From a bacterium (lineage in GTDB: Bacteria; Elusimicrobiota; Elusimicrobia; Elusimicrobiales; UBA9959), in the NCBI GenBank assembly GCA_021811315.1, contig JAJZPF010000010.1:3109-67108 (forward strand): a DNA stretch of 64,000 bases, in the 5' to 3' direction. How positions within the stretch are numbered: position 1 is the first letter of the stretch; the number at the start of each line of letters is the position of its first letter. The notes beneath the pieces were generated by a model, which saw nothing but the letters and a program-made list of their open reading frames with translations, had not been told where the DNA came from and ran no database searches. Position numbers and translations under genes: made by a program. Shown in pieces: positions 1 through 12,405 of the stretch.

Positions 1-20
1 TTGTTGACGTCAACAAAATG
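1..20. repeat. Palindrome TTGTTGAC|GTCAACAA(AATG), truncated by the window edge; near-identical copy at 155-180
   Basis: Read directly: ttgttgacgtcaacaaaatg is self-complementary about GAC|GTC. Confidence 0.6.
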
Positions 21-154
21 GTTGCTTATCCTAAACATGCGGAGGTGACGCAGGGAAATAAGCGTAGTGCGTCGGAATTCCCGACATACTGCTTTCTATC
101 TATAGGCGACAGTTGACAAGTATTCCTTGATAACTGAGTTTCATTCAATTCTTA

Positions 155-180
155 TCATTTTGTTGACATCAACAAAATGA
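155..180. repeat. 26-bp palindrome TCATTTTGTTGA-ca-TCAACAAAATGA with perfect 12-nt arms
   Basis: Reverse complement of the left arm equals the right arm exactly; lies in very AT-rich non-coding DNA. Confidence 0.85.
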
Positions 181-222
181 TACTCAATCTGCTGGCGTGA
201 GTAATAGCAAGATATTCTGAGC

Positions 223-248
223 CCATTTTCCTGATGTCAGGAAAATGG
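223..248. repeat. 26-bp palindrome CCATTTTCCTGA-tg-TCAGGAAAATGG with perfect 12-nt arms
   Basis: Read directly; same architecture as 155-180 but a different core sequence. Confidence 0.85.
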
Positions 249-414
249 TCGCCACATTGAAATATGATCAGCGACTTACGGCGCAAGGTTGAAATCTGCG
301 TTTGTACAATCATGATTCACCCGACAAAAGTCTTGATTCTCTTTATGTTTGAACTACCGAGGATTCCTCTATGGTTGCGGTAATGCAAAGTTATATGAAT
401 TGGTGGGTTTGGTA

Positions 415-439
415 GAAAATTCGGAATTTCCGAATTTTC
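415..439. repeat. 25-bp palindrome GAAAATTCGGAA-t-TTCCGAATTTTC, 15 nt beyond the stop of the last gene of the minus-strand island operon; possible terminator or operator
   Basis: Perfect 12-nt arms read directly; position just 3' of the CDS 454..750. Confidence 0.85.
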
Positions 440-453
440 TCATGATTAAGTGG

Positions 454-750
454 TTAATGCCGAGACTGCCCGGCAAGTCCTGTTAATTTTTCGCAGTTGC
501 TCTTTTTGCCAGGGTGCGTTAATCGGGGCCATTCCTTGCCACGGCTTAGGTGGTTCAGGAAACGCAGCAGGCGCGCGATCTTCTTTGTATCGACCTCCGC
601 CGGGGTCTGGTTAAGATAGATATGCAATCGCCTATCAAAGGCGGGATTATTGTCCTTTCTAGTAAAACAAACTATTGCCCTTCCGCAATGCCATTCCTCG
701 CTGTGCCGGCAATGCCTGTTTAGGAGCCTGCGCGCCGCAAGGGATTTCAT
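454..750 (-). CDS. Hypothetical 98-aa protein (MKSLAARRLLNRHCRHSEEWHC...), fourth gene of the island operon
   Basis: Internal ATG at 750 of ORF 454..849; ATGA start/stop overlap with the upstream gene (747-750); no family recognised. Confidence 0.5.
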   Translation of the reverse strand: MKSLAARRLLNRHCRHSEEWHCGRAIVCFTRKDNNPAFDRRLHIYLNQTPAEVDTKKIARLLRFLNHLSRGKEWPRLTHPGKKSNCEKLTGLAGQSRH

Positions 751-1028
751 GGGAACTCCTTCTTCAGGAACACGAGCAGGGCTTCTATATCTTTGGGCGC
801 GATATCCCAGCGCATATAAGTCGTGATCGCACATTGAAACCCGTTCCACCCCTCTGGGTTATTCTGGTCCAGTCGGATATCAACGGCAAAAGCCTGGTTC
901 GACTTCCACCATTCCCGGTGGTCCGCCCTGTCGTCCTGGGTATAGTGGCGCTTTTTTAGCAGCTGCTCCAACTGTTTCTTGATCCGCGTCTCCTGCGGCG
1001 TCATTCTTTTTTCTCGCGGCGGTTTCAT
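747..1028 (-). CDS. Hypothetical 93-aa protein (MKPPREKRMTPQETRIKKQLEQLL...), third gene of the island operon
   Basis: Internal ATG at 1028 of ORF 747..1127, 1 nt after the toxin-like gene stop (TGAcATG); no family recognised. Confidence 0.5.
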   Translation of the reverse strand: MKPPREKRMTPQETRIKKQLEQLLKKRHYTQDDRADHREWWKSNQAFAVDIRLDQNNPEGWNGFQCAITTYMRWDIAPKDIEALLVFLKKEFP

Positions 1029-1029
1029 G

Positions 1030-1392
1030 TCAGGGTTTGTAGTGTTTGAATATTCGAGCCCGGTCTTCCAGTTCTTTATCACCTTTGTAGTAGATCTCGA
1101 TAAACTGAACGCGATTTTCCTGGGCAAAGAAAGCGTAGATTATCCGAATTCCTGAATTGCTGCCAGTGCCGCTTAGGGCGCGGCAGGCGAACTTCCTTGC
1201 CTTGTATATCTTGGGCTCTTCGATACCGAGCCCGGCAATGTTCACTATGCCGCCGTTATCTTGCTTGAGCTCGTGGAAAAGGCGAAGCTGGACCGAGATA
1301 AAAGTCTTCAGGTCTGCCTCAAGCGTGCGATAGCGCTTGGACAGTTTTTTGAGTTCCTTCTCGAACTCCGGAAGACAATCAGTCTTTATCAC
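1030..1392 (-). CDS. RelE/ParE-superfamily toxin-like protein (120 aa)
   Basis: C-terminal pattern KARKFACRAL..GSNSGIRIIYAF..ENRVQFIEIYYKGDKE resembles the K.R...G.SGGYR.IY....V.L..IY.K pattern of RelE/HigB/Gp49-type toxins; start overlaps the stop of the upstream antitoxin-like gene by 14 nt. Confidence 0.7.
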   Translation of the reverse strand: MIKTDCLPEFEKELKKLSKRYRTLEADLKTFISVQLRLFHELKQDNGGIVNIAGLGIEEPKIYKARKFACRALSGTGSNSGIRIIYAFFAQENRVQFIEIYYKGDKELEDRARIFKHYKP

Positions 1393-2158
1393 TGTATTCC
1401 CTTACCGAGTATGCCGGTGTGCGATAAAAGACCGACTCGTAATCTATCTTTTTACCATCCTCGGCGGTCATCCAGGGCACGTCGCCATGGGAGTATTCTG
1501 CTATTTGCTTGGTGGACATATCCGACAACTTGTTTATTACCTGGTCGATAACCTCGGTTTCAGCGCCGCTCAGGATCGTGGTGTCTGCCGCCCGCAGCGG
1601 GAGATATTTCTTTTGCAGATAATCGAAATGCTTGTTCTTCACCATTACTAGGTCTTTGTCTTTCATGGTATCTATGATTTTGTGGAATTCTATCGGGGTA
1701 GGTCCGAAGCGATTGCGGATGTATGTGGCGCCAATAAGTTGGGTTTCATACTTCTCGTAGAAATTGAAGTCTATGAAATAGAGCAGCTTGTATATTACAG
1801 TTTCCCCAATATTAGGCTTGGCTCCTACCCTGTTGAGGATGTAGAGCAGGACCTCTTTGAATTTCTTTACATTCCTCTGTGGAACGTTTATGCGGATTTC
1901 TTCTTTTGACTGGGTAGGCATATTGCCCTCTTTTTCCAGGATTACCTGGGGTTCTTTGTTAAGGCTCAGTATGCTGTCCGCGTCAACGCTGAATATTTGT
2001 GTCAGCGCAATAACTTCTTCAGCGGTAACATGTCGTTCCCCGTTCTCAATCTGTGAGACGGAGGGGCGGGCAATCTTTAACTCTTTTGCCAATTGGTCTT
2101 GGCTTAGCCCGGCATTTTCTCTTAACTGACGTATTCTAAAACCTATTTGTTTATTCAT
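1379..2158 (-). CDS. XRE-family HTH fused to a DUF4065/Panacea (SocA-like) antitoxin domain (260 aa)
   Basis: N-terminus MNKQIGFRIRQLRENAGLSQDQLAKELKIARPSVSQIENGER is an HTH_3 pattern; YKLLYFIDFNFYEKYETQLIGATYIRNRFGPTP is a DUF4065 pattern; start moved to the internal ATG at 2158 because the upstream part overlaps a consensus promoter. Confidence 0.8.
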   Translation of the reverse strand: MNKQIGFRIRQLRENAGLSQDQLAKELKIARPSVSQIENGERHVTAEEVIALTQIFSVDADSILSLNKEPQVILEKEGNMPTQSKEEIRINVPQRNVKKFKEVLLYILNRVGAKPNIGETVIYKLLYFIDFNFYEKYETQLIGATYIRNRFGPTPIEFHKIIDTMKDKDLVMVKNKHFDYLQKKYLPLRAADTTILSGAETEVIDQVINKLSDMSTKQIAEYSHGDVPWMTAEDGKKIDYESVFYRTPAYSVREYSDKD

Positions 2159-2176
2159 GTTTGTTGGTGGGTGTTT

Positions 2177-2285
2177 ATAGTATAGCAGACGGAAAGAATA
2201 TCTGTCAATGCCATGTCCGATAATCTTACACACACGCTTAATGGTGCCCAATAAATACGCCTCCAGTGAAAATAGTATAGCAGAC
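2177..2285. repeat. Exact 14-nt direct repeat ATAGTATAGCAGAC at 2177-2190 and 2272-2285
   Basis: Read directly; the promoter-proximal copy contains the -10 element, so the pair are candidate operator sites. Confidence 0.8.
2179..2208 (-). promoter_or_regulatory. Sigma70-type promoter TTGACA-N18-TATACT for the island operon
   Basis: Minus strand reads TTGACAgatattctttccgtctgcTATACT; the -10 ends 20 nt before the ATG at 2158; no Shine-Dalgarno in between. Confidence 0.55.
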
Positions 2286-2311
2286 CATCGCGACAGCGTA
2301 GTGTCGCGATG
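2286..2311. other. Hairpin CATCGCGACA-gcgtag-TGTCGCGATG (10-bp perfect stem), adjacent to the distal 14-mer copy
   Basis: Read directly. Confidence 0.6.
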
Positions 2312-2391
2312 AAAATAGCTATTTTTGCTGTTTCTGCTTTCCCGGGTGGGTAATTCTGCGTACCTTATTTTGGGCGGGGGCATTTAAGGCG

Positions 2392-2443
2392 GGCCAGGCC
2401 AGAGGCGGCGTCCACCATGGGGAAAGCCGCTACTGGCCTGGCC
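2392..2443. other. Long GC-rich hairpin at the AT-rich/GC-rich boundary: GGCCAGGCCAG...CTGGCCTGGCC plus an inner GGCGGC/GCCGCT extension
   Basis: 11-bp perfect outer stem (2392-2402 with 2433-2443), an inner 6-bp extension with one G-U pair, and a 16-nt loop. Confidence 0.7.
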
Positions 2444-2652
2444 TCTCCATATTTCCGTTTGCAGTGTTCCCCCCTCTTCCGGGGGCTACATATAATTACC
2501 AGAAAAGCCCGCCAGGGCGAGCGAACAGCGAGCCGGGGCGGGTTTTTAATAAACCAAGGTGCCCCCGTATAAATTCTTTCCCCCGGTGGCCATAATTTAA
2601 AAATAAGAAAAAAATTAAATTCTGCGCTGTACGGGCCGCTGTTGCGGCCCGG

Positions 2653-2801
2653 GGGTGGAGCGCAGCGACACCGCAGTGCGGCCCGCCAAGGCCCCCGGTT
2701 TTGGGGGCCGGCTGGCCGCGCAGAAGGAGGTTGTTATAAGATGCAGCCTACCGGCGGAGCAAGAGCGAAGGCGCGTAGTGCCGGGTGGAGCGAAGCGACA
2801 C
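2653..2801 (+). repeat. Two copies of GGGTGGAGCG(C/A)AGCGACAC at 2653-2671 and 2783-2801, each followed by CAGTG a few nt later
   Basis: 18 of 19 identical, read directly; related GAGCGnnnAGCGAGC motifs at 2516-2534, 30380-30395 and 30479-30494. Confidence 0.7.
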
Positions 2802-3075
2802 AATTCAGTGATCAGGCCTTGCGAACCCGCTTCTCGCGGCAAGGAGCAGTGCGGGGCCGCGCTGCGTGGCCACGCCTGCGACGACATCTCGCGGTGTCAT
2901 GGGGCGTTCCAGGCGTTGGATCTGTAGAGGTTTTTCAGGAAGCGATACAAAGCAAGGCGGAATCGTCCCCACAGTTCAGCCGAAGGTAATGATGTGGACT
3001 TTTTTCACTGTGATATTTTACCTTTTCACAAGCTGGCGGTGTTTTTTGGTTTGTTGGGCAGGCAGCGGGAGTCCG

Positions 3076-3917: not shown

Positions 3918-5729
<1,812 letters not shown>

Positions 5730-11659: not shown

Positions 11660-12405
11660 AGCCTCTCTATTTCCGTCTTTAGCGCCCAGCCTTTTATGCC
11701 TTCCTTCTGCAGCCCTATCTCGTAGTAGGCTTCGTCGCCCGTGTCGAGTATCCTGACGAGGCGCCCTTCCGGGGCGGAGGCGTAGGTCTTGAACTTTTCC
11801 CCCGGCCCGCTGAGCATCCGCGTCCCCCCGGCCTTTATAACTACGCCTGAGGAACTGAAGGGCGAGGACTGCCTGGCGCCCAGCCAGACCGCGGTGAAGA
11901 CGAGGAGCCCGGCCGCCGCGAGCGAAACGCGGCCGGCGGCCGCCCCGCCCCTGCCGCCGTCCAGGAGGAAGGCCGCCGCGCCGGCCAGGCAGGCCAGCCA
12001 GAAAAGAAGTATGGCCGAAGCTTTGAGCTCGGTTTCCGAAACCAGGTAATAGAGGTAATGGAGCGCCGCGGGCGCGCCTTCCGGCACCAGGGACTGGCCG
12101 GTCTGGCGCAGGGCGAAGTCGAGGTTGGCACGGATGTCAGGCGAGCGCGGGTCCAGCATGAAAGCCCGGGCATAATTGAACACGGCGGGGCCTATGCGGT
12201 TCAGGCGGAAAAGGGCGTTGCCCGCATTGTACCAGGCCCATTGGTTGGCGGGCTCCTTGGCTATTATCAGCTTGTAGCCCTCCAGGGCCTCCTCGTACTG
12301 GCCGTTCCGGTACTGGTCGTTGAACTCCGCCAGCTCGCCGCGGTCGTAAGCCGCGGCCGCCGAAGGCAGCGCTAAAATTAAAGCTAAAAATATCTTCTTC
12401 ATCAT
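11656..12405 (-). CDS. batE: BatE-like protein (signal peptide, TPR repeats, C-terminal SH3b-like domain)
   Basis: TPR-like YRNGQYEEALEGYKLIIAKEP.NQWAWYNAGNALF; position after batD; SH3-like tail. Confidence 0.7.
   Translation of the reverse strand: MMKKIFLALILALPSAAAAYDRGELAEFNDQYRNGQYEEALEGYKLIIAKEPANQWAWYNAGNALFRLNRIGPAVFNYARAFMLDPRSPDIRANLDFALRQTGQSLVPEGAPAALHYLYYLVSETELKASAILLFWLACLAGAAAFLLDGGRGGAAAGRVSLAAAGLLVFTAVWLGARQSSPFSSSGVVIKAGGTRMLSGPGEKFKTYASAPEGRLVRILDTGDEAYYEIGLQKEGIKGWALKTEIERL

Follow-up and report, generated by a model that had tools for sequence, protein, structure and literature searches.

At its left end, a 64,000-nucleotide stretch of the Elusimicrobiota contig JAJZPF010000010.1 (assembly GCA_021811315.1), the whole of which we call the window, carries four small minus-strand genes, g1 to g4, which are chained behind one promoter and bordered by a repeated DNA module. 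A first-pass annotation, made from the sequence alone, had described them as a four-component unit containing a toxin–antitoxin (TA) pair. We followed the genes and the module through the loci and contigs compared here, numbered L001 to L051. Coordinates left of the window are given on L001 (contig DAHVYS010000023.1, 87,226 bp, GCA_027331005.1), which encodes g1 and on which window position x corresponds to position 12159 − x (reverse strand). The features, in window positions, are as follows.

1379–2158, minus strand: g1, 259 aa, antitoxin-like, with an N-terminal XRE-type helix–turn–helix (HTH) and a C-terminal SocA/Panacea (DUF4065) domain
1030–1392, minus strand: g2, 120 aa, GTG start, putative toxin, probably of the RelE/ParE superfamily and HigB-2-like
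747–1028, minus strand: g3, 93 aa (85 aa if started at ATG 1004), tiny orphan family, candidate toxin
454–750, minus strand: g4, 98 aa, still smaller orphan family, candidate antitoxin or partner
2179–2208, minus strand: sigma-70-type promoter, TTGACA, 18 nt, TG-extended TATACT (TGcTATACT), 11 of 12 positions matching
2389–2999, minus strand: repeat module copy A, with an 18-nt core, a short coding-like tail, an AT-rich centre and a terminator-like hairpin
2392–2443, no strand: GC-rich hairpin with arms of 26 + 26 nt, at the composition boundary and the distal end of the module

The chain of genes is tight. g1 and g2 overlap by 14 nt (1379–1392), the stop codon of g2 (1030–1032) and the ATG of g3 (1026–1028) form the junction TGAcATG, and the stop of g3 shares ATGA with the start of g4 (747–750). 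The promoter ends 21 nt upstream of the g1 ATG. Our scan returned four promoter-like sites against 3.2 expected, and the weight of this site rests on its position and score, not on the count. Between 1 and 2158 the minus strand showed no terminator-like site. The junctions and the near-consensus promoter are as first described. The GC content is 0.466 in 1–2391, 0.586 in 2392–3075 and 0.615 in 3076–64000, and the hand counts made earlier for two lines of sequence, 16/60 (121–180) and 42/60 (4021–4080), were exact. The individual genes have 45–53% GC, so the region is 'AT-rich' in a relative sense only.

The domain assignment of g1 was confirmed. The gene call on the source contig was the same as in the list of open reading frames (ORFs), and its product matched Pfam SocA_Panacea (PF13274; 4.7e-19, residues 123–229, 69.8 bits with a cut-off of 25.7) and HTH_3 (4.2e-14, residues 9–61); the NCBIfam SocA_antitoxin model gave a weak match. 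The probable affiliation of g2 came from a profile of 40 sequences, which in the PDB weakly matched HigB-2 of Vibrio cholerae (5ja9, 5mje) with E 0.004 at positions 75–111. The aligned part comprises a G-x-G-x3-G-x-R-I-I-Y core and the strands after it. Several g2 homologues carry the Joint Genome Institute (JGI) label RelE (COG-type). When 40 homologues were scanned, no convincing toxin-family match appeared (none in Pfam or NCBIfam), and in PHROGs g2 matched an unnamed family only. In phage databases the only match was a hypothetical protein of a Methanobacteriales virus (32%), and plasmid databases gave none.

There are at least 848 homologues of g2. In every neighbourhood that we examined (98–63% identity), a Panacea gene, in some cases with an HTH and in others not, immediately preceded the g2 homologue, and the surroundings were otherwise unrelated (L010–L012, L013–L014, L015–L017, L020, L044–L047, L048–L051). 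The pair was seen in Elusimicrobia, in Cloacimonadota-type contigs and in others. In L013–L014 (where a 1179-aa gene follows), L015–L017 and L044–L051 it stands without g3–g4. We accept g1–g2 as a further member of the known PanAT kind. Domain content and pair conservation make it very probable that the two genes form a TA system; that g2 is specifically a RelE-type toxin is probable with more reserve. In close relatives (L010 2925–3065, L012 221–361), a second g2-like gene survives about 170 nt upstream of g1 as a C-terminal piece of 47 residues, which was probably left behind by an older PanAT unit at this site.

The genes g3 and g4 belong to very small families. Among 5.8 billion clusters we found 40 homologues of g3 and 11 of g4, and an exhaustive profile search with g3 gave 12 representatives at E ≤ 1e-3 among 1.84 billion. 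The last three of these, weak matches to TPR/RHS repeat proteins, were dismissed as compositional or repeat artefacts. Both are nevertheless real genes under purifying selection, since the pairwise ratios of nonsynonymous to synonymous substitution (dN/dS) are low (0.07–0.24 for g3, 0.11–0.41 for g4), with synonymous sites often saturated, in at least seven lineages. In g3, D36-H37-R38-E39-W40 and D54-Q55 are invariant. The public gene call places the g3 start at the second ATG (1004, 85 aa); we favour the first, because the third-position changes in the MKPPR extension are synonymous across relatives. An AlphaFold model of g3 was moderately confident (predicted local distance difference test, pLDDT, 76.6) and has an alpha-beta3-alpha topology, which gave no fold match in the PDB or BFVD by Foldseek. 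For g4, neither sequence nor fold (Foldseek, with an unreliable model) matched the PDB.

Three ideas about these proteins were rejected. The topology of g3 had suggested HicA, but hhalign gave a probability of at most 0.15% for g3 or g4 against E. coli HicA, and PF07927 was not matched. The two are not recognisable paralogues, having only a 15-residue C-terminal helix in common (probability 14.7%). A zinc site in g4, H13-C14-H16-C22, was dropped: close relatives keep all four residues, but L023 has others in place of H13 and C22.

In every context examined, g3 and g4 occur together. At least seven contexts contain the pair without g1–g2; L022 holds a decayed copy. The genes found upstream of g3 are diverse.

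L002–L008, L018, L030: AAA_14/DUF4143
L009: AlbA_2/HATPase_c_4 protein
L021: 302-aa protein
L023: AbiEii-like protein
L040–L042: MNT-HepT pair in a polysaccharide cluster
L043: helicase/Fic cluster

DNA homology between these contexts begins exactly at the ATG of g3. The junction is TGAc|ATG here and TAAt|ATG behind AAA_14; in L009, L021 and L023 there are overlaps or gaps of up to ≈ 12 nt, a distance exceeded only in L040–L042 (64 nt) and L043 (75 nt). The overlap between g3 and g4 was kept in all contexts checked, as ATGA in L002, L005, L018, L040 and L043 and as 10–14 nt in L009, L021 and L023. Since the pair has no promoter or leader of its own in most contexts, it would depend on the expression of the upstream gene. 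The order g1–g4 recurs only in close relatives, L010–L012 and L020. From these comparisons, the independence of g3–g4 from g1–g2 appears highly likely.

The low-GC region had been thought to end at the hairpin 2392–2443. The hairpin itself was confirmed (−44.2 kcal/mol, z = −6.3, 0 of 200 shuffles as stable), but it belongs to a repeated module of ≈ 0.6 kb that runs to 2999. The module is a direct repeat of ≈ 0.55–0.63 kb. By blastn there is no second copy inside the 64-kb window and there are three further direct copies left of it on the same contig, located between gene groups.

L001 12254–12882: module copy
L001 16656–17227: module copy
L001 19650–19814: module copy, truncated where the contig stops

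Copies on this contig are 70–93% identical to each other. An exact-pattern scan located the module in 16 more metagenome contigs, often at their ends; in all, copies were present in over 20 other contigs (among them L005, L010, L018, L020 and L024–L039). A terminator-like hairpin (2507–2526 and a T-run), flanked by A- and T-runs, is invariant in the copies. The GC-rich hairpin stretch has a homologue in copy B of the contig, and the start of its arm recurs in roughly half of the 20 copies in an alignment.

Left of window position 1, 7,656 bp (≈ 7.66 kb) remain to the end of the contig, and the lower-GC tract (0.43–0.60) extends through all of it. The earlier proposal that the island runs off the left edge thus holds for composition, but no integrase, transposase or recombinase was found in these 7.66 kb among the gene calls of the 19.8-kb locus. 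The genes there encode an AAA_14/DUF4143 ATPase, an AEP-TOTE primase–helicase fusion, a 176-aa protein, a 228-aa weakly AbiEii-like protein and a methyltransferase. In other contigs (L029, L031, L032, L036), direct module copies are arrayed at a spacing of 2.5–4 kb. The cassettes between them recur (AAA_14 + AEP-helicase; the 176 + 228 aa pair; AAA_14 + PRiA4_ORF3 + a 186–226 aa protein X) and stand in different order in L001, L029 and L032. The architecture is that of a repeat-bounded cassette array.

Past copy A, the neighbouring gene encodes a CDP-alcohol phosphatidyltransferase; no tRNA or tmRNA that could have served as an integration target lies near the island. The nearest relatives of this region are groundwater Elusimicrobia metagenome-assembled genomes (MAGs). 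One related Elusimicrobia MAG, L018, has the phosphatidyltransferase orthologue (77% nucleotide identity) and, 70 nt past that gene, AAA_14–g3–g4 and a different methyltransferase, without g1–g2. The segment differs between relatives, as had been anticipated, because L018 keeps the neighbour but has other cargo. This comparison supports the view that the g1–g4 segment is a variable, horizontally acquired region.

We consider it probable, if well short of certain, that g1–g4 are one transcription unit made up of two independent modules, a PanAT-type g1–g2 and a rare g3–g4, and that they are the first cargo of the repeat-bounded array. Transcription from the promoter (2208–2179) would proceed through all four genes. 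The g1 protein would bind and neutralise g2 via its Panacea domain, and its HTH would autorepress the near-consensus promoter, possibly at duplicated GTCTGCTATACTAT boxes. Expression of g3 would occur by read-through and termination–reinitiation at TGAcATG, and g4 would be translated by ATGA coupling to g3. The pair g3–g4 may be a toxin-first, TA-like or addiction pair in which g3 is harmful and g4 the neutraliser. Two frameshifts are relevant to these roles. In L010–L012, three separate assemblies, g3 has a −1 frameshift at about codon 53, and in L020 an independent +1 frameshift at about codon 28; g4 is intact in both cases. This is the pattern expected if g3 is harmful and g4 protective. 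The assignment of toxin and protective roles is tentative, and we place it somewhat below an even chance.

The first-pass annotation had instead favoured a single four-component system, with g3 and g4 as accessory parts of a Panacea TA or abortive-infection module. The genes are indeed tightly chained behind one promoter, the same order recurs in L010–L012 and L020, and a third, conserved 'accessory' gene may be part of a PanAT locus (PMC8832971). Most g1–g2 pairs lack g3–g4, however, and most g3–g4 contexts lack g1–g2, with family sizes of at least 848 homologues for g2, 40 for g3 and 11 for g4; g3 is frameshifted in both other lineages that have all four genes. Because these lineages are close relatives (88–98% g2 identity), the recurrence of the order is likely due to shared ancestry. 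A four-component system is therefore improbable, and this claim was not upheld. A more plausible rival, which we still rate as unlikely, gives g3–g4 a regulatory or adaptor role: the small pair would act on the product of the upstream gene, or together with it, for example as a sensor or modulator of defence effectors. It would account for the finding that the pair is always co-oriented with an upstream defence- or TA-type gene, usually within ≈ 12 nt (64–75 nt at most), and has no promoter of its own. On the other hand, the upstream partners (AAA_14/DUF4143, AlbA_2-ATPase, nucleotidyltransferase, RelE-like toxins) are unrelated in fold and function, so that a shared specific contact is hard to picture, and the loss of g3 by frameshift with retention of g4 suits an addiction pair better. 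Lastly, very small families, the lack of library matches and the g3 pseudogenes of some relatives might indicate that g3, g4 or both are chance ORFs or decaying remnants. The dN/dS values of 0.07–0.41 with saturated synonymous sites in at least seven lineages largely refute this, and the invariant motifs, the conserved overlap junction and the moderately confident g3 model also argue against it; we regard it as very improbable.

Several points weigh against our own proposal of a PanAT unit followed by an independent TA-like pair. For g2, there was no match in Pfam, NCBIfam or PADLOC, and the alignment to HigB-2 spans only 37 of 120 residues; the earlier RelE/ParE-like assignment is weakly supported by the profile match and the JGI labels, not by these libraries. 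For g3 and g4, comparison with Pfam, NCBIfam, PADLOC, PHROGs, PDB profiles and Foldseek PDB/BFVD revealed no known toxin or antitoxin, and the g4 model (pLDDT 56.9) is unreliable. The earlier idea of a second TA pair stays the favoured one. Unlike in classical type II systems, neither a promoter of its own nor a DNA-binding domain was found for g3–g4. The constant place of the pair behind ATPase or toxin genes could mean that it performs a functional service for those genes, and neutral decay, not selection against a toxin, could underlie the g3 frameshifts. Finally, all data are from metagenome assemblies.

Upstream of g1 and downstream of g4 there are further sequence features that may be regulatory.

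2177–2309, no strand: candidate operator region, with the direct repeat ATAGTATAGCAGAC at 2177–2190 (covering the −10 box) and 2272–2285
2288–2309, no strand: palindrome in the candidate operator region, TCGCGACA...TGTCGCGA, read from the sequence
1–453, minus strand: tail downstream of g4, 40% GC, with palindromic boxes TTGTTGACGTCAACAAAATG at 1–20 and 153–182 and a weaker one at 228–247

The HTH of g1 may bind the candidate operator 2177–2309. The tail boxes, of the form TTGTTGAC(G/A)TCAACAAAATG, gave five strand-wise matches against 0.12 expected, the five being two palindromic sites counted on both strands and one match with three mismatches. Such boxes also occur behind g4 in L005–L008, L030 and L010–L012, and the tail (1–453) travels with g3–g4 in some relatives (92% identity to L005). 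The boxes look like operators.

To describe the module, we compared its copies around the core. The 18-nt core ATCATTACCTTCGGCTGA (= ATCATTACNTTCGGNTGA), at 2976–2993 in the window, belongs to the coding-like 5' end of the module and is present in all of them. In 24 distinct copies, considered over ≈ 70 nt on each side of the core, variability upstream of TGA was three-periodic (entropies 0.44/0.46/1.05) in a frame reading …V[H/C/F]IITFG-stop. Downstream of TGA the periodicity lay in the +1 frame (0.77/0.54/1.16), reading (D/E)LWGRFRLALYRFLKNLY… ((D/E)LWGRF…LKNLY). The switch of frame falls exactly at TGA. Many copies have an ATG-started ORF of 24–31 codons in the first frame; the window copy is without that start. 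The +1 frame encodes the C-terminal end of protein X and likewise that of a large serine recombinase (L039, L027). Programmed +1 frameshifting, dual coding or an att core embedded in coding sequence could explain the switch.

The serine recombinase (Resolvase + Recombinase + Zn_ribbon_recom) is encoded at L039 6962–8593 (minus strand) and L027 2896–3801, and the 3' end of its gene lies inside the module. In L039 (6962–8593 and 8939–9117), two copies differ by one mismatch over ≈ 137 nt up to TTCGGCTG and then diverge; past this point, one copy continues as module and the other as the start of a miaB-like core gene. The TTCGGCTG point is a candidate crossover site. Because the L039 copies diverge right after it, they suggest that recombination is site-specific and takes place at the core, most cassettes being non-autonomous. 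Other breakpoints of homology lie elsewhere, at the ATG of the small ORF or just left of the core and at no single position, and for this reason we treat mobilisation through homologous recombination between modules as an equal alternative.

Two further identities of the module were considered and rejected. As a structured RNA it gave no Rfam match at E ≤ 1, and RNAalifold on 20 copies recovered only the invariant terminator-like hairpin (19 pairs, 0 compensatory). Protein-coding ORFs of 80–115 aa within it are argued against by indels of 24–47 nt between copies. We also noticed a mini-insert of ≈ 32–40 nt (…TGATCACTGAATTGTGTCGCTTCGCTCCACC…) on the minus strand of copy A, at roughly 2794–2824 (alignment columns 411–441). 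Elsewhere it occupies other positions, in the terminator loops of L005 6170–6405 and L031 2795–3037, and it resembles a tiny mobile palindromic unit. IS110-family transposase genes (L005 2503–3522, L030 258–1400) lie within rearranged module fragments; elements of this family are known to target repeated sequences.

Among the cassettes themselves, L001 12965–16591 consists of an AAA_14/DUF4143 ATPase followed after 10 nt by a fusion of AEP-TOTE primase with DEAD/Helicase_C, and the same two-gene cassette was seen in L029, L032 and L043. This cassette is a candidate defence module; conflict systems of the TOTE family have been described (PMC12458937). Protein X was tried as a Bro-N/antirepressor and had no Pfam match.

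These observations indicate that accidental stacking can produce a neat 'four-gene operon', here from a PanAT unit ahead of an independent rare pair that borrows its transcription. If g3–g4 is a TA pair, it would be a new family with an unusual mode of spread, without a promoter and placed at or after the stop codon of another gene. The array offers a concrete case, open to testing, of the way in which an uncultivated phylum gathers and reorders its defence and TA genes, possibly with a serine recombinase in place of an integron integrase. A wider interpretation would have the island as one arm of an undescribed cassette-accretion system in groundwater Elusimicrobiota, in which defence and TA cassettes are captured and shuffled at the ≈ 0.6-kb module and g3–g4 is a new toxin-first TA family spreading promoterless at or after stop codons. 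We consider this unlikely.

How does the locus compare with known systems? The N-terminal HTH + Panacea architecture was found in 343 PanA proteins, and ParE-type toxins are among the listed PanT partners (Kurata et al. 2022, PMC8832971). Like PanAT, g1 has a Panacea domain and an N-terminal HTH and overlaps a small downstream partner gene, and the pair is kept in different phyla and has mobile and defence genes around it. The differences from PanAT are that g2 belongs to a family without a curated model and with a weak tie to RelE/HigB-2, and that the pair is transcriptionally joined to a second, unrelated module. HigB-2/HigA-2 of V. cholerae (RelE superfamily; 5ja8, 5ja9, 5mje) is the best solved-structure match of the g2 profile. 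In the V. cholerae higBA-2 operon, the toxin is encoded first; here the antitoxin comes first, and g1 is of the Panacea type and not HigA-2. Toxin-first type II operons also include higBA, hicAB and mqsRA. The g3–g4 pair is like them in being two small overlapping genes that are mobile between contexts and lie next to other TA pairs, and in that frameshift loss affects the first gene of the two. It is unlike them in that it resembles none of them in sequence or fold, lacks both a recognisable DNA-binding antitoxin domain and its own promoter, and starts at or within ≈ 12 nt of an upstream stop codon in most contexts.

Composite islands of the staphylococcal cassette chromosome (SCC) type are serine-recombinase elements accreted in tandem, and integrons combine the tyrosine integrase IntI, an attI site beside the array and 60–150 bp attC sites that end promoterless cassettes. 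With both, the present array has in common co-oriented TA and defence cassettes, direct repeats with a conserved core and an order that varies between genomes. The repeats, however, are 0.55–0.63 kb rather than 15–150 bp, and the breakpoints are not at a single position. As in SCC islands, some units have a large serine recombinase beside the repeat and most do not; in contrast to them, there is no recombinase in the available part of this contig. In contrast to integrons, there are neither IntI nor attC-like sites, and cassettes have their own promoters, as g1 does. The g3–g4 pair and the array are a variation on known themes, namely TA stacking and tandem cassette accretion.

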